Assembly (NCBI GenBank): GCA_014905635.1
Contig: CM026547.1
Span: forward strand, 682,001 to 746,000
Direction: 5' to 3'
Length of the DNA stretch: 64,000 nt
Origin: Scenedesmus sp. PABB004
Lineage: Eukaryota
Both the position numbers and the translations under genes were made by a program. Of this stretch, positions 11,626-55,420 are shown piece after piece (position 1 is the first letter of the stretch; the number at the start of each line of letters is the position of its first letter). Below the pieces are notes generated by a model. The model saw only the letters and a list, made by a program, of their open reading frames with translations, was not told the DNA's origin and made no database searches.

Positions 11626-14373
11626 TCACTGCGGCTCCGCGGCGTCGGTTGGGCTGTACTTGGGGCTGGTTGGGCTGTACTTGGGGCTGGTTGGGCTGTA
11701 CGTAGGGCTCGTCGGCGAGTAGTTGGGGCTCGTCGGCGAGTAGGTTGGGCTGGTCGGGCTGTAATTGGGGCTCGTGGGCGAGTACGTAGGGCTGGTTGGG
11801 CTGTAGGTAGGGCTCGTCGGCGAGTAGTTGGGGCTCGTCGGCGAGTAGGTCGGGCTCGTGGGCGAATAGGTCGGGCTGGTTGGGCTGTAGTTGGGGCTCG
11901 TGGGCGAGTAGGTCGGGCTGGTGGGACTGTATGTAGGGCTGGTCGGGCTGTAGCTCGGGCTCGTCGGCGAGTAGGTCGGGCTGGTCGGGCTGTAGCTCGG
12001 GCTGGTCGGGCTGTAGCCGGGCGAGGTTGGGCTGTAGCCGGGCGACGTCGGGCTGTAGCCAGGCGAGGTCGGGCTGTAGCCGGGCGACGTCGGGCTGTAG
12101 CCAGGCGAGGTCGGGCTGTAGCCAGGCGAGGTCGGGCTGTAGCCAGGCGACGTCGGGCTGTAGCCAGGCGAGGTCGGGCTGTAGCCAGGCGACGTCGGGC
12201 TGTAGCCAGGCGAGGTCGGACTGTAGCTCGGGCTGGTGGGGCTGTAGCCGCCGCCGGGCGACGTCGCGGGCGAGAGCGTCGGCGCGCGGCTGGGGCTGAA
12301 CATGACGTCCCGCATCGGCGAGTACGACACGCCTTCGATCGCCTGGTCACTGCGCGGATCACGGGGCAGACACACACAGAAACACGCGCACAGGCGGGCG
12401 GGCGGCGGTGAGCGGAGGCAGCGCGCGGGCGGGGGCGGTTAGGGGGTTTAGGGTTAGGGGGTTAAACCCTAAAACCGTAAACCCTAAACCCCCCGCGGGC
12501 ACACGCACGGGTCTGGGTTGTGGAACGGCGTGCGCCCGGGCGTCATGTGCCCCGGCGTGCGCCCGGGCGTGAGGCCGACGTCCCAGTCGTGCGCGTCGTC
12601 GCCGTCCTCGAGCGCGAGGAGGTCTGTCGCGTGCGCGAGCTCGTCCTCGTTGAGCAGCAGGTCAAACGCGCCCGTGCCGAGCGGGCAGAGCTGGCCGAGC
12701 ATGATGTTCTCGCTCACGCCCTGTGTGTGTGTGTGGTGGTGGGGGGGGGGGGCAGAGAGGGGGAGGGGGGGAGAGGCGTGGGTGTGGGTGGGGTGGGGGG
12801 GGGGGGGGGGGGCGTCGCGCGCTGCGGCCAGAGCCCCCTGCCGCCCCGCCCCGGTCCCGGCGCCCCGCCGCCCTCGCCCCGCCGCCCCGCCCCGCCCCGC
12901 CGCTGTGACCCCGCGCCGCCCCCCGCACCGTCATGCGGTCCTTCTCCGCGTACACCGCCGCGCGCAGCAGGATGTCCACCGTCTCCTCAAAGCTGCACTG
13001 CGCGAGCGGCGAGGCCTCGGTGCGGTTGATGCCGTGCCGCGTGATCGCCATGAGGTGCCCGCGGCAGGTCATGACGTCGCACAGGATCGCGAGGTGCCTG
13101 CCGGGTTGACGCGATTCGCGCAGCGGCGGCGGCGGCGGCGGGGTGGGCCCCCGCGTGCCGGCAGGCCCACACGCGCGCGCGCGCGCTGCTGCCACACGCC
13201 CCCTGCCCGCCCCTGCTGCCGCTGCGCGCCCCTGCCGGCCCCCGCCGCCGCGCGTTGCCGCGCGCCTGTAGTTGACGTAGGAGCCGTCAAACTCGATGAC
13301 GTTGCGCAGCTCGCGCAGCAGCGCGGCGCGGCAGGCCTCGACGCCCAGGTCCTGGATGATCTCGATGAGGTCGTTGCTCATCGTGCGGCTCGCGTCCACG
13401 CCCGGCACCGGCAGCACCTGCGGCGCGGCACGGCGCGGCGACGGCCCGGCCGCGTGTCAGCGCGGGCCCCCGCCGCCCCTAGCGCTCTGCGCCCAACCCG
13501 CTCGACCTCTCCCCCTCCGCAGCCGCGCCGCCCCGGCCCGCCGCGCTGCGCCACGCCCCGGCCCTAAACCCTGCGCCGCCGCCACGCCCCGGCCCTAAAC
13601 CCTGCGCCGCCCCGCGCCGCGCCGCCGCGCGCCGCGCCGCCGCGCACCCCCATGAGGTTGACGCCCTCGGTGTCGAGCACCCACTCGTCCTCTTGGCGGT
13701 ACCCGTTGCTGCTGGCCACGTCGGGGAAGAGCGACTTTTGCTGGCGCAGGAAGACCTTGTTGATGCGCTCCACGCCCTTGGGGGAGGGGGACAGAGTGAG
13801 CGGGGGCAGAGCGAGCGGGGGCAGGGCAGAGGGCAGGGCGGAGCGGGGGAGAGCGTGAGCGCGCGGCCGCAGGGCGGGGGGACGGCTGGGCGACGCATCG
13901 GCGTGTGCGCGTGCACGCGCGCGTAGGGTTTAGGCGCGGCGGCCGCCGCGCCGTCTTCGCACCTGGAGCTTCATGTCTCGCAGGTACATCGCGTCCAGGC
14001 GCTTCAGCGTCTCGTCCGTCACCTCCTGCGCGCGGCGCGGCGCGGCGCGGCGTGCGCGGCACGGGGGTCAGCGCGCTCGCCGCATGCGCGCGCGCCAGCG
14101 CGCAGCAGCTCGCGGCGCGCGGCTCGCGCACACACACACGCGCACGTGCACCCAGCGCCGCACCGAGCCCCCTCCCCCTCCCACACACCTCTGCGTCGCC
14201 GCCGGCGCCCATGGGCTTAATCGCGCCCATCTCGTCGCCCTCCTCGCCGCCGCCGCCGCCGCCGAGGCCGCCGCCGCCGGCCTGGCCGCTCTCGTCGAGG
14301 ATGCGCAGCCGCACGACCTTGATCGCCGCGTTGTCGTCGCTCACGATCACGTCCAGCAGGTTCTGTGGGTGTC

Positions 14374-14440
<67 letters not shown>

Positions 14441-14487
14441 TGGGTGTGGGTGGGTGTGTGTGTGGGTGTGTGTGTGTGTGTGGGTGT

Positions 14488-14536
<49 letters not shown>

Positions 14537-17500: not shown

Positions 17501-20500
17501 GAGGCCCTGCAGGTAGCTGTTCTCCACGAAGCCGCGCGACTCGGGGCCGTAGTCGTCCTTTGCAAAGTGGGGCAGCGTGCGGCCGACAAAGCCAAAGGGG
17601 ATGCGCTTGCCCTCCACGTTTTGCTGGCCCACGCAGGCCATCATCTGGGAGATGTTGATGAAGGAGCCCTTGGAGCCGCTGGTGACCATCTTGATGATGT
17701 TGTTGCTCCAGTCGAGGCTGTTCTGCGCCGTCTTGCCTGCGCGCGCGCGGGGGGGTGTGGGTGTGGGCGCGGGTGGTGTGTGTGTGAGTTGTGTGCGGGG
17801 GCGCGAGGTGCGCGCGGCATGGGGAGTGCGCGGGGCGCGGCGACGGGGGAAGCGCGCGCGCGCGCGCGGCGGGTCGTGCGTGCTGCTGGCGCGCAGCGCA
17901 GTGCAGCACGCGCGGCGCGGCGGCGCGCACCCGCGTCGTCGCGGGCCTTGTTGAGCACGCCGTTGACCTTCTGCTCGAACGCCTCCATCAGCGTGCGCCC
18001 GGGCATGCCCTCCAGCTTGCCCGTCTGCGCGGCGGCGGCGATGTGTGTGTGTGTGGGGAGGGGGGGGGGCAGGAGGTCGTCAGCCTCGGGAGCAGCGCGG
18101 CGGGTGCGCCGCAAACAGCTGGCACAGCAAAGCGTTCAGCAACACAGACCAATACGCAAAACTCATCAACCGCCGCGCCTGGTAGGCCTCGATGATGCGC
18201 TTCACGTCCTCCTTGGCGGTGTCGATGATGCTGCCGATCTTGGCCCCCGTCGCCGCGTCGGCCACGGTGTCGCCGATGCCGATCGACATGCCGTGCTGCG
18301 GTGCGCGGCGTGTGTGTGTGTGGGGGGGGGGGGGTGAGCGCGCGGGCGGGCGCGGCGTTGGGCAAGACGCATGGGTGAGCGTGCGTGTGCCAAGGTGGGT
18401 GGGAGGCGGCCGAGGGGCCCAAAAGGCCCCCAGGCGGCGGCGGCGCCAGCGCGGCGCTGCGGCGGGGGCACCTGCAGGAGCCAGTGGTTGACGGTGAACT
18501 GGGTGTTGTTGATCGTGTAGCGCGTCGCGTCGGGGCCGAGCTCGTTCATGACCGTGTGCACCAGACCGCCGCCGCCCGTGCCGAGCGTCTTCTTGCACAG
18601 GCAGCCTGCGGGCGGGCGGGCGGGCGGGCGGGCGGGCGTGGAGGGGTCAGCGTGGGTGGGTGGGTTGACGTGCGTGTGTGCGCGTGGGTGCGTGCGCATG
18701 TGCCAGCGTGCGTGCGTGCGCGCGGGTGCGTGCGCGGCACTTGCGCTCCACCCACGCGCAGAGATGTGGACACAGCGACAGTGCTGCGCACGCACCCACG
18801 CACACGCACGCACGTGCGCCACCACGTGGCGCCCGCGCCGCCGCCGCCGCCGCCGCGTGCCGCGTGCAGCGCTGCGCCGCCGCGCGCAACGCCGCCGCGC
18901 GCCGCGCGCCGCCGCGCCGCACCGTGGATGAGCACGCCGCGCTTGATGAGGATGGCACTGTCGTCGTAGCTGAACGCCCGCTCGTCGCCATCCTTGGCCC
19001 AGCTGCTCGTGCGCTCGAGGCTGATCGGTGGCAGGAAGCAGCTGAACACCTGCGGGCGCGCGCGGCGCGGCGCGGCGCGGCGCGGCGGCGGGGCGGGGCT
19101 CAGAGGCCGGCCCCTGGCTGCCTCTCGCCATCCCTGAGGAAGCGGCCCTCCGGCCCGACCGGCCGCGGGCCGCCGCCGACGCGGTCGCGCCCTGCGCGCG
19201 CGGTCCGAGCCCCACGCGCCTGCTTGCCCGTCCAGAGCGGCTGCGGCTTGAGGATGGTCGGCATCGGCACCGTGCCGTCCCACTCCTGCGCGGCCGTCGC
19301 GCGGCGCGGGCGCGGGCGCGGGCGCGGCGGCACGGCGGCGGCGACGCGGTGAGGGCGCGCGCGCGCTGGCGCGGCAGCGGCGGCGGCGGCGCTGAGCGGC
19401 CCCGCGGCGGCGTTGGGCGGCCCCGCGGCGGGCGCGGCGGGCGCGGCGGGCGCGGAGGGTGCTGCGTGGGCTCGCCTGGATGTTCATGAGGATGTTCATG
19501 ACGAGCTCCTTGGGGATGAAGGTGTCGCGCGCGCTCATGAGCTTGCAGCCCAGCAGCGTGTCCTGCGGGAAGCGCACAGGGCGCGGGTGCGCGTGTGGGC
19601 GTGCGCGCGTGCGGGCGTGCGGGCGCCGGCCGCGCGCACACACCACCACCACCGCCACCCTCAGGCTGACCCGAGCCCACGCCTGCCCCCTCAAGCCTGG
19701 CGTTGACGCAGCTGTCTTGATGGCGATGTGAGTGTCACCCAGATCGACATCAAGACAGCTGCGTCAACGCCAGCCTTGAGGGGCCAGGCGCGACCGCGGG
19801 CCAGCCCCGGGTGCCGCCAGCAGGGCCGGCGGCCTCTCCCACCCCCCCCCCTCCACACGCACACGCACACGGCGCCCCGCACGCACGCAGCGCCCCGCAC
19901 ACAGAGCCGCGCACAGGCACGCAGCACCCCGCGCCGCCGCGGCCGCGCCTGCACGATGCCGATGACGGGCTTGTTGGCCTGCGGGCTCACGATGTTGCGG
20001 GGGACCATCATGATGTTGGCCATCTCCGCACGCGTCTCATGGCTCTGCGGCGCGGCAGGCACGCACGCGCACGCAGTGGGGCCGCGGCGGGCGGGCGGGT
20101 CGGGCGGGCGCGGCGCGAGCGTGCTGGCGCGCGCCGGCGCGCGCAGCACAGCACGGCGGCCCTCGAGAGGGGCGGGCGTGCGTGCGTGCGTGCGCGGCGG
20201 CACCTGCGCGACGTGCATGTTCATCTCGTCGCCGTCAAAGTCGGCGTTGTAGGGCGTCGTCACGCTCAGGTTGAGCCTGCGCGCACACGCGGGCGCGGCG
20301 CACGCAGGGGGCGGCGGCGGGCGGTGCGGGGCCGCGCGTTTGGCGGCGCGCGGCCAGGCAGAACGCAGCGCGCGCCGGCGAGGGGGGGAGGCTCGTGCTT
20401 GCGTCGCGCGGCGCCGCGTCGCGCGGCGCGCACCTGAAGGTTGAGTAGGGCAGGATGCGCACGCGGTGGCCCATCATGCTCATCTTGTGCAGGCTGGGCT

Positions 20501-21965
20501 GGCGGTTGAACAGCACGAGGTCGCCGTTCTGCAGCTGCCGCTCGACCTTGTCCCCGATCTGGGGCGGGCGGGCGGGTGGGCGTGGGTGGGCGGGTGGGTG
20601 TGTGTGGGCGTGTGGGTGTGGGTGTGGGTGTGGGTGTGTGTGGGGGGGGGGGGGGGGGGGGACTGCCTGAGCGCCTCGCGCCCTCTCCACGCCGCACCCA
20701 ACACCCGCCCCGCCGCGCCGCCCAGCACGCCGCCGCCACGCGCGCGCGCGCGCGCGCCGTCTCCCGCCGCGCGCGCCTGCCGCCGCCATGCGCGCGCGCG
20801 CGCGCGCGCGCCCGTGCGCCGCCGCCGCCGCACCTCGAGCGCGCGCGACGCGCCGTCGCGGAGGTATGCGAGGTTGATGCGGCGGCCGTCCTTGCGAATG
20901 ATGAACTTGGCGCCCGTCTCGCCCGCGGGCGCGTGCGGGCCGAGCTCGACCAGGTGCTGCAGCCTGGGCGGCGGGGAGGGAGTGCGTGTGTGTGTGTGGG
21001 GGGGGGGGTGAGGGCGGGAGGTGAGGACGGTGAGGACGGCGGGGCGAGGGGGCAGGCGGGGCGGAGGGGAGGGAGTGCGGGCGGGCGGAGCGCGGCGGAG
21101 CGCGGCGGAGCGCGGCGGAGCGCGGCGGAGCGCGGCGGAGCGCGGCGGAGCGCGGCGCTGCGCTGCGGCCGGCGCGCGCACTTGGCGCGGTTGAGCGGCG
21201 TGACCGTCTCTGGGAAGGTGAGGTTCTGCGCGATGGACCAGGGCACGCCGAGCTCGTCGATGCCGATGTTGGGGTCGCCTGGCGGCAGGGTTAAGGGCGG
21301 GCGGCGACGGGGTTTAGGAGGGGTTTTACGAGGTTCAGGAGGGTTCAGGACGCGGAGGGGAATGGGGCGCGGAGCAGCGCCGGCCGGCGCGGGACGGCGG
21401 GGCGCCGCCGGCGGGGCGCGCGGAGCAGCGCGCCCACCCGTGATGACGGTGCGCGCGCTGAAGTCGACGCGCTTGCCCATGAGGTTGCCGCGGATGCGCC
21501 CGCTCTTGCCCTTGAGCCGCTGTGCGGGCACGCAGACGCACGCAGCGCGCGCGGACGCACGCAGCGCGCGCGGCGCGGAGGCGGCGCTCAGCACGCGTCG
21601 GGCTGCAGCCCCGCGCCGGCGCCACAGCCCCGCCGCCGCGCGGCCTGCAGCCCGCTGCCTCCGCCGCCGCCGCCGCGCCGCGCACGGGCAGCCCCCCGCG
21701 CGCGCCTGGCTGATCGACTTGATCGGCCGCCCGCTGCGCTGCGTCGCTGGGTTCATGCCGGGCAGGGTGTTGTCCATGTAGGTGGTCACGTGGAACTGCA
21801 GCAGCGCGACGTACTCGGTGATGATGTGCTGCGGCGAGCCGTTGGCGACCATGCGCTTGAGCGTGTTGTTCGCGCGCACGATCTCAACCAGCTTGTGCGT
21901 GAGGTCGTCCTCGCACCTGGGCGGGTGTGTGTGGGTGTGGGTGTGGGTGGATGGTGTGTGTGGGT

Positions 21966-22033
<68 letters not shown>

Positions 22034-24302: not shown

Positions 24303-27633
<3,331 letters not shown>

Positions 27634-48100: not shown

Positions 48101-51100
48101 GTTGGCCTCAGCCACCGACAGCGACACGCTCGCCACCAGCTGCGCGTCCACCACGACCAGCTGAGACGCGTCGCTCGCGCTGAGGTTGCCCGCCGTCCCC
48201 GAGCCGGACACAGACAGCGACGCGCGGCCGGCCTCAAACGCGGCCTGGTCAGCAAAGCCCACTGCGGCGGTGCAGGTCACGGACGCGTCGACGCCCAGCG
48301 CGCCGATGCTCACGCCGCCGTCGGCCACCACCACGCCAGCAGCAGTGCCGTTGGCGGGGCCGCTGCAGGCGAGGCCGGTGAGGGTGGCATTGCCGGAGAC
48401 GATCAGGCTGACGTTGCGCAGCGTCACGGAGCCCGTGTTGACGGCGGTGAAGGTGGCGGCGACCGTGCTGGCCGCGGACGGCGCGTAGCTCTCGCTCACG
48501 CCTGCCGACAGGTCCAGGGCCGCGCTCTGGTTCAGCTGCACCACGGCCCAGTCGGGCGACACCGGCGGCAGGTCGCGCACGGGGCCGCGCGGCGAGGCGC
48601 TGCCGGCCGTGGCGTTGAGCAGCACCGCGCCCAGGTCAAAGTCGGCCTGTGACAGCTGCAGCACGACAGAGCACAGCGCGGAGCCGCGCGGCTCCAGGAC
48701 CGCAACGGTGCAGTCGTTGGTGGCGCCGCCAGCGGTCGTGAGGGTCACGTTGTTGAGCCCAACGTTGCCGGGGTTGGTCAGCAGCACGGGGCAGGTCACG
48801 GCACCAGCTGCGCGAGCGGACGGGGCAGAGGGCGTGCGGCAGCAGCGCGCGGGGGCCAGGTGAGTGCTGCAGGCCGAGCTGGCTGGATGGGGCCAGCGCT
48901 CGCTGGCCGGCGCCGCTGCGGCGCGGCTGCCGCCCCTCTGCTGACCGCCCGTGCCGCGTGCCGGCGCGTCACTCACGCATGCGCGCCGGGCGGGTGCAGC
49001 TCGGGCCGTCCACGTCCACAGCCAGGTGCGGCGAGGCCGACACGGCGACCCGCACGCTGGCGGGTGCTTCGACCAGCGCCGCGGAGCCGTCGCTGCCCAG
49101 GTTGGCCGCGCTGGCGCCGGCAGCAAAGGTGCGGTCGCCCGCCTCCAGCAGCGCCTGGGTGAAGGTGAAGCTGCCCTCGCACGCCAGCTCGCTGCCCACG
49201 GGCAGCACGCCCAACGGCAGCGCCACGCTGGCGGCGGCACCCTTGAGGGTGCAGGCGCCGTCCCGGCCAGACAGCCCAGGGACCGCAACGCTGACGTTGC
49301 GCAGCTCGATGTTGCCAGCGTTGATGGCCGTCACACGCAGCCGCACCACGGCGCCGGCCTCGGACACGGCACCCGCCGTGGCGTTGGCGTCGCTCGCAGC
49401 CACGCGCACGAGCCCCACGGACAGGGCGCGCACGGCGGTCAGCGGCACCACCGCGCTGGCGGAGCCAGACACGGAGGCGAAGGGGGTCATGCGCGCAGGC
49501 GTGGCCGTGACGTTGACTGCGAGCGTGATGTTGCCGGCCTCGATGGCAGCAGGGCCAGCCACCACGCTCACGCTGCAGCTGTCGATCCCAGATGACTGGC
49601 CGGGCGCCAGCTCCAGGTCGGACAGGCCGCTGCAGTTGGCGGCGGCCCCGCTCACGGCCAGGGCGACCAGCCCCACGTTGCCCGCGTTGCGCACCACTAC
49701 CAGGCAGCTGACCAGCATGCCTGCGGCAGCAGCGGTCAGCGGTCAGCGAGGGCGGCAGCGCCCGAGCGCGCGTGCCGCCCGGGCGCCGCGCAAGACGAGT
49801 GCTGCCTGCGCGCACTGCGCACCCCCACCTGCCGCTGTGAAAGTGGATGACGTGCCGCAGCCGCCCAGCTCCACCGCCAAGCTTGGCGCCAAGCTCGGGG
49901 GGTCGACATACAGGCTCGGCGGCGCCACCTGCGTGCTGAGCTGGCACACAAACGAGGGCAGCACCGAGGTGCACATGGCATTGTCCCACGCGGCGGCGCC
50001 ACTGGACGTGCTTTCGGCTGCCACGAAGCCACAGCGCGCCTCCGACGCATTGGCGGGGCGGCCGGGCAGCCAGGCGGTGAAGTCGAGCGCGCTGCCGTTG
50101 GTCCAGGCAAACGTGCCCGCCGCGCCCGCGGCAAGGCCGATCCAGCACCTTGCGCCCGCGCCGCCGCGGGCGCACAGCTCCAGCAGCAGCTCGCCCTCCA
50201 GCGCGCTGCGCGCCGACGCGAGCTGCCCGCCCATGGCGCCGCACTGCGCGCGCGCCTCGTCAAACGCGGCGGCGCCGACGAACAGGAGGAACGCCTGGTC
50301 GTTCAGCAGCACCGCCGAGGCGGCGCTGTGGGCCGAGGCGTTCCACTGCACAGTGCCCGCGCCGAGCGCGTCCTGCTTGCAGAGCACCGGCAGCCGCACG
50401 GCGCCGCAGTCGGCGCCGATCCACGCCGCGGCCGCGGTGCCGTCGCGGCTGACCGCGGCGCAGTCGCCGTCCGGCGGCGGCGCGCCCGTCGCCCACGCGA
50501 TAAAGTCTGCGTCGCTGCCGTCCGCCCACGCCATGCTGCCGTTGATCCCCGGCACCGCGCGGTCAATCCAGCAGCCGGCCGGGCCGCCGCTTGCCAGCGC
50601 GCAGAGCTGCACGAGCAGCTGGCTCTCCGCCGCGCTGTGCACCGAGGGCAGGGCCGCGCCGAGCGCGGCGCAGAGCTGCACAGCCTGGCTGTGGCTCGCT
50701 GCGACATCGTAGAGCAGGTATGAGTGGTTGTTGAGCTGCTGGCTGGCCACAGCGCTCGGAGGCAGCACGATCCCTGCGGGGCACTCGCGCGCGGCGGCAA
50801 AAGGGCATGGTCAGGGCGGACGATGCAGCGCAGCACCGTGCAGGCGGCGACCCGACAGGTCGCACGCGCAGCGCAGCGCTCACCGCCGCCCATGGTGGCG
50901 TTGAAGCCGTCGTAAGCAGGGCCTGGGCTCGGGCTTGACGTGGCGGCAGGCGACGTGCCTGAGGCGGGAGACGGGCTCGCGTCCGCCGCCGCCGCGATGG
51001 GCTTAGGCGACGGGCTCGCGTCTGCTGCCACGGTTGGCTCGGGCGACGGGCTCGCCTCCGCAGCTGCGGCAGGCTGAGGCGACGGGCTCGCCTCCGCAGC

Positions 51101-54100
51101 TGCGGCAGGCTGAGGCAACGGGCTCGCCTCTGCCGCCGCGGTTGGCTCGGGCGACGGGCTCGCCTCCGCAGCCGCGGCAGGCTGAGGCGACGGGCTCGCC
51201 TCTGCCGCCACGGTGGGCTCGGGCGACGGGCTCGCCTCCGCAGCCGCGGCAGGCTGAGGCGACGGGCTCGCCTCCGCAGCCACAGCAGGCTGAGGCGACG
51301 GGCTCGCCTCCGCAGCTGCGGCAGGCTGAGGCGACGGGCTCGCCTCTGCCGCCACGGTGGGCTCGGGCGACGGGCTCGCCTCTGCCGCCGCGGTGGGCTT
51401 GGGCGATGGGCTCGCCTCTGCCGCGGCGTCGGGCTCAGGCGAGGGGCTGTCTGGCGCCGCCGCCGCGTCGGGCGCAGGCGACGGGCTGTCTGCCGCCGCT
51501 GCCGCGTCGGGCGCAGGCGAGGGGCTGTCTTGTGCCGCCGCCGCATCGGGCTCAGGCGACGGGCTATCTGGCGCCGTCGCTGCGTCGGGCGCAGGCGAGG
51601 GGCTGTCTGCCGCCGCTGCCGCGTCGGGCGCAGGCGAGGGGCTGTCTGCCGCCGCTGCCGCATCGGGCGCAGGCGAGGGGCTGTCTGGCGCCGCTGCCGC
51701 GTCGGGCGCAGGCGAGGGGCTGTCTTGTGCCGCCGCCGCATCGGGCTCAGGCGACGGGCTATCTGGCGCCGTCGCCGCGTCGGGCGCAGGCGAGGGGCTG
51801 TCTGGCGCCGCCGCCGCGTCGGGCGCAGGCGAGGGGCTGTCTGCCGCCGCTGCGACGTCGGGCGCAGGCGAGGGGCTGTCTGGCGCCGCTGCGACGTCGG
51901 GCGCAGGCGAGGGGCTATCTGGCGCCGTCGCCGCGTCGGGCGCAGGCGAGGGGCTGTCTGCCGCCGCTGCCGCATCGGGCGCAGGCGAGGGGCTGTCTGG
52001 CGCCGCTGCCGCGTCGGGCGCAGGCGACGGGCTGTCTTGTGCCGCCGCCGCATCGGGCTCAGGCGACGGGCTATCTGGCGCCGTCGCCGCGTCGGGCGCA
52101 GGCGACGGGCTGTCTGGCGCCGTCGCCGCGTCGAGCTCAGGCGAGGAGCTGTCTGGCGCCGAGGCCGCGTCGGGCGCAGGCGAGGTGCTGTCTGGCGCCG
52201 TCGCCGCGTCGGGCGCAGGCGAGGGGCTGTCTGCCGCCGCTGCCGCATCGGGCGCAGGCGAGGGGCTGTCTGGCGCCGCTGCCGCGTCGGGCGCAGGCGA
52301 GGGGCTGTCTTGTGCCGCCGCCGCATCGGGCTCAGGCGACGGGCTATCTGGCGCCGTCGCCGCGTCGGGCGCAGGCGAGGGGCTGTCTGCCGCCGCCGCC
52401 GCGTCGGGCTCAGGCGAGGTGCTGTCTGGCGCCGCCGCCGCGTCGGGCGCAGGCGAGGGGCTGTCTGGCGCCGCCGCCGCGTCGGGCGCAGGCGAGGGGC
52501 TGTCTGCCGCCGCTGCGACGTCGGGCGCAGGCGAGGGGCTATCTGGCGCCGTCGCCGCGTCGGGCGCAGGCGAGGGGCTGTCTGCCGCCGCTGCCGCATC
52601 GGGCGCAGGCGAGGGGCTGTCTGGCGCCGCTGCCGCGTCGGGCGCAGGCGACGGGCTGTCTTGTGCCGCCGCCGCATCGGGCTCAGGCGACGGGCTATCT
52701 GGCGCCGTCGCCGCGTCGGGCGCAGGCGAGGGGCTGTCTGGCGCCGTCGCCGCGTCGAGCTCAGGCGAGGAGCTGTCTGGCGCCGCCGCCGCGTCGGGCG
52801 CAGGCGAGGTGCTGTCTGGCGCCGCCGCCGCGTCGGGCGCAGGCGAGGGGCTGTCTGCCGCCGCTGCGACGTCGGGCGCAGGCGAGGGGCTGTCTGCCGC
52901 CGCTGCGACGTCGGGCGCAGGCGAGGGGCTGTCTTGTGCCGCCGCCGCATCGGGCTCAGGCGACGGGCTATCTGGCGCCGTCGCCGCGTCGGGCGCAGGC
53001 GAGGGGCTGTCTGGCGCCGCCGCCGCGTCGGGCGCAGGCGAGGGGCTGTCTGCCGCCGCTGCGACGTCGGGCGCAGGCGAGGGGCTGTCTGGCGCCGCTG
53101 CGACGTCGGGCGCAGGCGAGGGGCTATCTGGCGCCGTCGCCGCGTCGGGCGCAGGCGAGGGGCTGTCTGCCGCCGCTGCCGCATCGGGCGCAGGCGAGGG
53201 GCTGTCTGGCGCCGCTGCCGCGTCGGGCGCAGGCGACGGGCTGTCTTGTGCCGCCGCCGCATCGGGCTCAGGCGACGGGCTATCTGGCGCCGTCGCCGCG
53301 TCGGGCGCAGGCGAGGGGCTGTCTGCCGCCGCCGCCGCGTCGGGCTCAGGCGAGGTGCTGTCTGGCGCCGCCGCCGCGTCGGGCGCAGGCGAGGGGCTGT
53401 CTGGCGCCGCCGCCGCGTCGGGCGCAGGCGAGGGGCTGTCTGCCGCCGCTGCGACGTCGGGCGCAGGCGAGGGGCTATCTGGCGCCGTCGCCGCGTCGGG
53501 CGCAGGCGAGGGGCTGTCTGCCGCCGCTGCCGCATCGGGCGCAGGCGAGGGGCTGTCTGGCGCCGCTGCCGCGTCGGGCGCAGGCGACGGGCTGTCTTGT
53601 GCCGCCGCCGCATCGGGCTCAGGCGACGGGCTATCTGGCGCCGTCGCCGCGTCGGGCGCAGGCGACGGGCTGTCTGGCGCCGTCGCCGCGTCGAGCTCAG
53701 GCGAGGAGCTGTCTGGCGCCGCCGCCGCGTCGGGCGCAGGCGAGGTGCTGTCTGGCGCCGCCGCCGCGTCGGGCGCAGGCGAGGGGCTGTCTGCCGCCGC
53801 TGCGACGTCGGGCGCAGGCGAGGGGCTGTCTGCCGCCGCTGCGACGTCGGGCGCAGGCGAGGGGCTGTCTTGTGCCGCCGCCGCATCGGGCTCAGGCGAC
53901 GGGCTATCTGGCGCCGTCGCCGCGTCGGGCGCAGGCGAGGGGCTGTCTGGCGCCGCCGCCGCGTCGGGCGCAGGCGAGGGGCTGTCTGCCGCCGCTGCGA
54001 CGTCGGGCGCAGGCGAGGGGCTGTCTGGCGCCGCTGCGACGTCGGGCGCAGGCGAGGGGCTATCTGGCGCCGTCGCCGCGTCGGGCGCAGGCGAGGGGCT

Positions 54101-55266
54101 GTCTGCCGCCGCTGCCGCATCGGGCGCAGGCGAGGGGCTGTCTGGCGCCGCTGCCGCGTCGGGCGCAGGCGACGGGCTGTCTGGTGCCGCCGCCGCATCG
54201 GGCGCAGGCGACGGGCTATCTGGCGCCGTCGCCGCGTCGGGCGCAGGCGACGGGCTGTCTGGCGCCGTCGCCGCGTCGAGCTCAGGCGAGGAGCTGTCTG
54301 GCGCCGCCGCCGCGTCGGGCGCAGGCGAGGTGCTGTCTGGCGCCGTCGCCGCGTCGGGCGCAGGCGAGGGGCTGTCTGCCGCCGCTGCCGCATCGGGCGC
54401 AGGCGAGGGGCTGTCTGGCGCCGCTGCCGCGTCGGGCGCAGGCGAGGGGCTGTCTTGTGCCGCCGCCGCATCGGGCTCAGGCGACGGGCTATCTGGCGCC
54501 GTCGCCGCGTCGGGCGCAGGCGAGGGGCTGTCTGCCGCCGCCGCCGCGTCGGGCTCAGGCGAGGTGCTGTCTGGCGCCGCCGCCGCGTCGGGCGCAGGCG
54601 AGGGGCTGTCTGCCGCCGCTGCCGCATCGGGCGCAGGCGAGGGGCTGTCTGGCGCCGCTGCCGCGTCGGGCGCAGGCGAGGGGCTGTCTTGTGCCGCCGC
54701 CGCATCGGGCTCAGGCGACGGGCTATCTGGCGCCGTCGCCGCGTCGGGCGCAGGCGAGGGGCTGTCTGCCGCCGCCGCCGCGTCGGGCTCAGGCGAGGTG
54801 CTGTCTGGCGCCGCCGCCGCGTCGGGCGCAGGCGAGGGGCTGTCTGCCGCCGCTGCCGCGTCGGGCGCAGGCGTGGGGCTGTCTGGCGCTGCCACCGCTG
54901 TGGGATCAGGAGAGGGTCTGGCGTCCGCCGCCGCATCGGGAGCAGGCGACGGGCTCTCCTGTGCCGCGACCCGCTGGCAGCCTGCGCGGGGAGCGGTGGC
55001 GCAGCGGCGGCGGGCGGACCGGCCCCGTCAGCGAGGCACGCACCGCGCAGGGCCGCGTGCAGGTGCGGTGAGGCGTGACTGGATGATCGCCGGCGGGCGG
55101 GCCACCGCCAGCGCCCGTGCAGGGCGTGCCGGGCGATGGCGGCAAATCGCGCTGCTCGCCGCCTTCCCGCCTGCTGGGACCACGCCGGCGCACCTGCGGT
55201 GGCCAGGAGCAGCGCCACAACGCAGAGGGACCACTGCGATGACATTACGGACTTTCGTCTCGCCAT
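36158..55266 (-). CDS. Giant single-pass cell-surface protein: signal peptide, Ser/Pro mucin-like array, 2 C-type lectin domains, Ig-like (DUF11-type) repeats, ~9 saposin-like Cys-rich modules, PKD/REJ-like region, SEA-like domain, TM, short tail
   Basis: Exon 1 (55266-55194) splices to 54981 giving WSLCVVALLLATAGCQRVAA-QESPSPAP. C-type lectin motifs A...C...GGQLAS...CWIGL...WTNGS..DFTAW.PG.P...C...WDNAMC...FVC at ~50770-49930. NxGNVxL repeats at ~49720-47290. CxxC..C..C..LCxxLGxC modules at ~47280-41815. FDATYSRDPSG and LDASGSADPD...FAWTC at ~40750-39860. LRAGSVIADV at ~36740; TM GVAAAGVAVIALGALAVVLL-RRR at ~36500-36420. Not every intron junction was checked, so one continuous gene is partly inferred. 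Confidence 0.75.
43716..43785. repeat. Degenerate telomere-like tract inside an intron of the giant gene
   Basis: TAGGGGGTTAA...CCCTAAACCCTA...AACCCCTGA..CCCCTGAACCCTAAACCCCC. Confidence 0.7.
50965..51426 (-). repeat. Coding 36-bp tandem repeat (EASPSPQPAAAA-type), ~12 copies
   Basis: GGCGACGGGCTCGCCTC recurs every 36 nt. Confidence 0.9.
51427..54895 (-). repeat. Coding 39-bp tandem repeat (DSPSPAPDAAAAP), ~89 copies with higher-order structure
   Basis: 39-nt periodicity over ~3.47 kb; open frame throughout. Confidence 0.97.
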
Positions 55267-55420
55267 CAGGCCGCGCCGCGCATGGGTCGAGCTCGGGATG
55301 CCAGCGCGCTCGTGCGCAGCGCTCGCGCGTCAGGCCGACCTCGCGGCCCTCCTGTAACTGACGGACACGTTCTAGAGCGCGTGTATCGCGCCGGAGTGCT
55401 GCGCCGAGCTCTGTGTTAAA

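Follow-up and report, generated by a model that had tools for sequence, protein, structure and literature searches.

Introduction

In the green alga Chlamydomonas reinhardtii, nine high-confidence microRNAs (miRNAs) are intronic, and 61.1% stem from introns or UTRs, according to the accessible text of Valli et al (2016; PMC4817775). The same text describes intronic stem-loops that are cut by DCL3 independently of splicing. An earlier note on the DNA analysed here had offered as background that many Chlamydomonas miRNAs derive from intronic hairpins, and its statement agrees with the accessible part of this report. Algal miRNAs are described as young and not conserved in the portion of a second report available to us (PMC5511227). 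Our literature search for small RNAs or for Dicer and Argonaute in Scenedesmus and the Sphaeropleales, supplements aside, found nothing relevant; one published DCL phylogeny is without Sphaeropleales, and in the one paper that mentions Tetradesmus, the mention concerns intron length only.

Here, we examine a long, near-perfect hairpin in intron 13 of RPB1 in Scenedesmus sp. PABB004, a chlorophycean alga of the order Sphaeropleales. Its reduced genome comprises 39.8 Mb and 7,092 genes, with 78.5% GC and 1.31% repeats, as given in the accessible text of a comparative study (PMC12571836). We find that the hairpin is real and far beyond chance, and we lean towards reading it as a discrete palindrome of ~150-160 bp that arose at the DNA level and is carried passively in the intron.

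Results

RPB1 and its introns

The window is the whole 64-kb stretch of DNA that was analysed; its GC content is 78.0%. A 70-residue exon query from the window matched the 1761-residue protein NRPB1 of Scenedesmus sp. PABB004 with 100% identity, and the next matches to the same exon came from Tetradesmus obliquus (97%) and Scenedesmus sp. NREL 46B-D3 (96%). All 1761 residues of NRPB1 (P0004) map exactly onto 36 exons on the minus strand, running from 23872 to 11629. These matches place the window in this alga or one nearly identical to it, within the Sphaeropleales rather than in Chlamydomonas. RPB1, which encodes the largest subunit of RNA polymerase II, is thus divided by 35 introns.

The hairpin lies in intron 13 (19563-19948, minus strand), a 386-nt intron with GC..AG ends (GCGCGG...CCGCAG) whose splice sites were resolved against the protein. 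The flanking exons are each placed by an open frame and a protein match: upstream, residues 487-518, ending in NKPVIGIVQ (19949-20044, minus strand), and downstream, residues 519-547, beginning [13 protein letters not shown]... (19476-19562, minus strand). Because the exon junction, Q518|D519, falls within a gapless conserved block in all eight aligned green-algal RPB1 proteins, the sequence between them is a non-coding intron.

The RPB1 introns range from 126 to 386 nt, with a median of 181 nt, and 33 of the 35 lie within 126-317 nt. The earlier note had placed the host intron among the longest in the gene; it is in fact the longest, followed by introns of 382 and 317 nt. When the ~156 nt of the hairpin module are subtracted, ~230 nt remain, within the ordinary 126-317 nt range.

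That note had also singled out the intron as GC-AG. The ends are as described, but they do not distinguish this intron from its neighbors: by the deposited protein model, on which this count rests rather than on RNA reads, 24 RPB1 introns are GT-AG and 11 are GC-AG. The GC donors are of the GCGCGG/GCGCGC type, and at none of these 11 of 35 introns (31%) does an alternative GT within 5 nt keep the protein. GC-AG introns average 1.2% over 121 plant species, according to the accessible text of a survey (PMC6310983). If a share of 31% GC donors holds genome-wide, this alga, with its 78%-GC genome, would have an unusually relaxed +2 donor position.

Several other features of the gene and its surroundings were recorded. 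Exons are 67.4% GC and introns 81.9% (19 of the 35 RPB1 introns entered that count), and exon third positions are 93% GC. On the sense strand, the introns are polar, with 5' halves enriched in G and T and 3' halves enriched in C and A; the GC skew is +0.07 in the former and -0.28 in the latter. Just upstream of RPB1, an open frame on the plus strand (24805-27633) contains a marginal match to FAST kinase-like subdomain 1 (27.8 bits, with the cut-off at 27.4). It was the only match when five large open frames from other parts of the window were scanned against Pfam. Farther away, ~5 kb at 50300-55360 are open in five of the six frames and show a repeat period of approximately 270-350 nt; the region matches the C-terminal repeat region of RPB1 at 26-29% identity (tblastn) and no Pfam family in the three frames tested. 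It is probably a gene for a proline/serine-rich repetitive protein.

Geometry and fold of the hairpin

A repeat search identified a gapless inverted repeat with two 71-nt arms, 19664-19734 and 19736-19806, that are 86% complementary and separated by a 1-nt spacer. We mapped the arms position by position around the center of the palindrome, T19735, counting k outward. The 71-nt arms have 10 non-Watson-Crick positions and no indels, and the gapless alignment extends over 71-76 positions. Five of the 10 fall in the inner 54 positions (19681-19734), at k=4, 7, 12, 39, and 49, leaving a perfect 26-bp core at k=13-38 in which 19697-19722 pairs with 19748-19773. This map reproduces the five mismatches in 54 nt and the 26-bp core reported earlier, as well as the looser pairing out to ~19664/19806; weaker pairing continues even beyond those limits and fades at ~19656/19815.

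Folding the RNA of the minus (sense) strand yields a single hairpin module of ~160 nt (19656-19815) with a triloop at its tip. Its energy is -142.1 kcal/mol, compared to -72.7 +/- 4.5 for dinucleotide shuffles (z -15.5), and none of 200 shuffles equals it. The corresponding value for the plus strand is -120.0 kcal/mol (z -14.2; again 0 of 200 shuffles equal), so that the sense strand is favored by 22 kcal/mol. These results bear out the earlier view that the pairing is more than chance GC palindromy. The sense-strand stem is ~70 bp long and free of bulges, and any 21-nt duplex within it has few mismatches. Like precursors of the plant and Chlamydomonas type, it forms a single hairpin with few mismatches and no large bulges. 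Like MITE or foldback elements, the module is small and bounded by terminal inverted repeats (~156 bp, nearly all of it inverted repeat), a likeness that is trivially true for palindromes.

The hairpin stands out from its surroundings. Of the 38 inverted repeats in the 64-kb window, we compared the 25 longest: this one alone is of high complexity, as judged by eye, and the remaining 24 are GC-rich, of low complexity, and contain spacers. No tandem repeats were found inside 19656-19815, whereas the surrounding introns are full of short ones. The stem had also been described as much less GC-rich than the intron around it. This contrast is real, with 67.1% GC in 19664-19806 compared to 81.5% in the remaining host intron, but it is not extreme: 8.9% of 359 windows of 143 nt each, drawn from the other 34 RPB1 introns, are equally GC-poor.

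We asked whether hairpins are a general feature of RPB1 introns and rejected this idea; 26 of the 35 introns have z > -2 against mononucleotide shuffles. For the other structured or long introns, 6 and 29, the explanation lies in short tandem repeats and in (CA)n/(GT)n microsatellites. On the plus strand, the microsatellites appear as (TG)n/(GT)n at 14364-14534 and 21925-22031, with 85 and 54.5 copies, respectively; they are (CA)n in the sense RNA, and introns 29 and 6 owe a large part of their length to them. The third-longest intron, intron 16, contains a low-complexity inverted repeat (18668-18815) that opposes GTGCG-type to CGCAC-type sequence, with arms of 31-41 nt that are 88-94% complementary; its fold surpasses that of dinucleotide shuffles by a modest margin only (z -3.1).

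Structure of the intron outside the module

The whole host intron folds at -298.5 kcal/mol (z -10.4) into a single extended stem that ends in the hairpin. After deletion of 19656-19815 in silico, the remaining 226 nt have a z of -0.03, with 44 of 100 shuffles folding as well. The duplex between the 5' and 3' flanks is likewise ordinary, matched by 67 of 200 shuffles. Because the flanks do no better than shuffles, only the ~160-nt module is special in this intron, and we rejected the idea that the intron as a whole is a selected stem bridging its splice sites.

The stem might nevertheless aid splicing. By looping out ~150 nt, it would allow the 386-nt intron to act like one of ~230 nt, holding the splice and branch sites at their usual distance. 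The tight length distribution of RPB1 introns is consistent with this proposal, given that the hairpin corresponds to the excess of the longest one, as is the position of the hairpin at the tip of a long stem that unites the intron ends. The outer stem, however, is no better than its composition predicts. The 382-nt intron has no comparable spanning structure: (CA)n microsatellite makes up half of it, and no pairs form in its 3' half when it is folded. As a splicing aid, the hairpin would also do no more than cancel the length that it adds, a situation more in keeping with a tolerated insertion than with a function. We therefore consider a role in splicing distinctly unlikely.

Evidence for a proposed origin at the DNA level

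The center of the palindrome is informative about how it arose. Positions k=1-3 on either side of T19735 are complementary, so that the symmetry passes straight through the would-be loop; by hand arithmetic, the chance of three out of three complementary positions is ~0.02 for the local composition. In the RNA fold, a 3-nt loop remains at the tip and these three pairs are unusable. That they are complementary even though RNA cannot pair them argues for an inverted duplication or foldback of DNA, of which they are the automatic product, rather than for selection on RNA. Together with the gapless arms, the distinct composition of the module, and the fact that it accounts for the excess length of the intron, this symmetry leads us to favor an origin at the DNA level.

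Some types of library are known to generate spacer-free palindromes as artefacts, and a chimeric or fold-back read could have been built into the contig. We find this scarcely credible here. Artefactual fold-backs would not show arms that diverge at 10 of 71 positions without indels, and the module is cleanly contained within one intron of an otherwise intact gene, all 36 exons of which match the deposited protein.

If the palindrome was inserted, it may have left a mark at its edges. A direct-repeat scan found the 6-bp sequence CCGCCA at 19652-19657 and again at 19814-19819, adjoining the points where arm pairing ends; the two copies could represent a target-site duplication. Flanking repeats of at least 6 bp occur at 12.5% of 3000 random centers in the gene, however, and the CCGCCA pair is therefore not significant.

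We also looked for relatives of the module. Even when up to three mismatches are allowed, a 24-nt stretch of the core occurs nowhere in the 64-kb window except in the two arms (0 expected); the module is thus present in one copy within the window. An exact 20-mer of the core is found at six loci in metagenome contigs, with one match each, none extending past the 20-mer, and with a GC content of 0.58-0.62; three of the six reach the blastn reporting threshold, matching the bare 20 bases only. An 18-mer of the core has nine single matches in prokaryote genomes, in unrelated bacteria, and no matches in viral contigs. The metagenome and prokaryote matches to these exact words are chance. Searching prokaryote genome contigs with the RPB1 protein, we obtained loci at 38-44% identity among the best 80, nearly all archaeal with a few bacterial MAG labels; these best 80 contain the archaeal-type RNA polymerase subunit only and no usable algal contamination.

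Other sources for the arms received no support. The arms lack the codon periodicity expected of a coding origin, with a phase GC contrast of 0.20-0.24, compared to 0.55 for exons and 0.12 for introns. ARAGORN found no genes in 19300-20200 that would point to a tRNA or SINE, and none of the Rfam matches is to a snoRNA model.

Several observations count against the DNA-level reading or parts of it. An insertion would sit more comfortably with more copies than the one in the 64-kb window, with a significant flanking repeat, and with a more extreme GC content. The 1.31% repeats reported for the genome of this strain in the available text (PMC12571836) speak against a mobile element. Lastly, the divergence of the arms at 10 of 71 positions means that the palindrome is not very recent and yet has been kept.

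Signs of selection on the RNA and the possibility of small RNAs

Four of the 10 mismatches in the arms are of the transition type. On the sense strand all four form G:U pairs, on the antisense strand none does, and it is because of these four that the sense strand has its 22 kcal/mol advantage. This 4:0 excess and the greater stability of the sense strand form the pattern expected from selection on an RNA stem, but the numbers are too small to decide (p = 0.125 for the G:U excess). The base skews of the introns leave undecided whether a transcription-linked mutation bias explains the excess. Given 10 mismatches in 71 positions, a perfect run of 26 bp has p = 0.076, and the contrast between inner and outer mismatches in the arms has p = 0.17. 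All signs of selection on the hairpin RNA are weak.

The earlier note had proposed a miRNA or hp-siRNA that is co-transcribed with the catalytic subunit of Pol II. On this view, the stem would be a small-RNA gene whose RNA a Dicer-like enzyme processes to a miRNA or to hairpin siRNAs co-expressed with RPB1. By analogy with Chlamydomonas, this could be so: a bulge-free sense stem of this length with a perfect 26-bp core suits dicing, the fold of the sense strand has the greater stability, each of the four transition-type mismatches forms G:U there, and the nine intronic Chlamydomonas miRNAs processed independently of splicing set a precedent in the accessible text (PMC4817775). If algal miRNAs are young and lineage-specific, as the available part of PMC5511227 has it, missing conservation would not weigh against a miRNA here.

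The loop-free palindromic center, in contrast, is unlike the product of selection at the RNA level. Six Rfam miRNA models match the hairpin on both strands, all far below their gathering scores (the best, MIR1437, reaches 63.2 bits against 168); such sub-threshold matches on both strands are the behavior of any long hairpin. Neither a source nor a complementary target site for the core was found in the 64-kb window, a limited search space that makes this a weak test; the only matches there are to GC-rich 21-mers of the outer arms, with 3-4 mismatches. Taken together, we regard a processed small-RNA precursor as a real but unlikely possibility.

A more elaborate proposal is that the stem would serve as a Dicer substrate within the pre-mRNA of the catalytic subunit of Pol II, with dicing competing against splicing so as to tie RPB1 output to RNAi, and would give rise to a lineage-specific miRNA that acts in trans. 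Such competition would resemble the direct cleavage of hairpin-bearing mRNAs by DCL3 in Chlamydomonas. We hold the combined proposal to be very unlikely, and a functional trans-acting miRNA to be much less likely than a processed small-RNA precursor.

Discussion

The analysis establishes the structure of the hairpin, where it lies, that it is discrete, and that its intron is overlong; how it originated, that it is a passenger, and what becomes of its RNA are matters of interpretation. In our preferred reading, the hairpin began as a palindrome in DNA. It may have arrived as a small foldback (MITE-like) element inserted at 19658-19813, perhaps duplicating CCGCCA. Alternatively, a snap-back (template-switch) event could have produced an inverted duplication of ~75 nt of the intron. 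We have a slight preference for the foldback insertion, with the snap-back duplication nearly as likely. In either case, the palindrome would be transcribed with RPB1, form ~70 bp of dsRNA stem within the pre-mRNA, and then be removed with the spliced intron as a passenger. A DNA-level foldback, which was the earlier note's own alternative, is compatible with dicing: if this alga has Dicer, the stem would serve as an incidental and evolutionarily young substrate.

What the locus means depends on which of these outcomes applies. If the stem is diced, intron-hosted hairpin small RNAs would extend beyond Chlamydomonas and Volvox to the Sphaeropleales, and an essential housekeeping gene would host a small-RNA hairpin; as a Dicer substrate, it would give the Sphaeropleales their first described small-RNA locus. 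If it is a foldback insertion, the event is an ordinary one. Its use would then lie mainly in marking a mobile or palindromic element, a rarity in a genome reported at 78.5% GC and 1.3% repeats, and in illustrating how outliers in intron length come about. As it stands, the present evidence supports only this ordinary reading, that of a foldback or palindrome.

The hairpin is a fresh instance of an already known type of feature, and it can be compared with three such types. The first is the set of intronic precursors of C. reinhardtii, also chlorophycean, such as cre-miR1157 in intron 22 of Cre12.g537671, as presented in the accessible text of Valli et al (2016; PMC4817775). With these precursors, the RPB1 hairpin shares a long, near-perfect stem-loop on the sense strand within a spliceosomal intron of a protein-coding gene. 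It differs from them in belonging to the Sphaeropleales, in having a stem that is a loop-free palindrome, and in being known from DNA and a predicted fold alone.

The second comparison is with young plant miRNA loci that arise by inverted duplication, as described in the available portion of PMC5511227. The gapless arms, their moderate divergence, and their location in a Pol II transcript are alike. Unlike those loci, however, the hairpin has no source or target gene in the 64-kb window, and its arms do not show the codon periodicity seen in exons of this genome. The third comparison is with foldback and MITE elements, which the module resembles in its size of ~156 bp, in consisting almost wholly of two inverted arms, in its intronic position and distinct composition, and in its possible short flanking repeat. 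It departs from a typical element of this kind in being present once in 64 kb, in having a flanking repeat that is not significant, and in residing in a genome reported to be repeat-poor.
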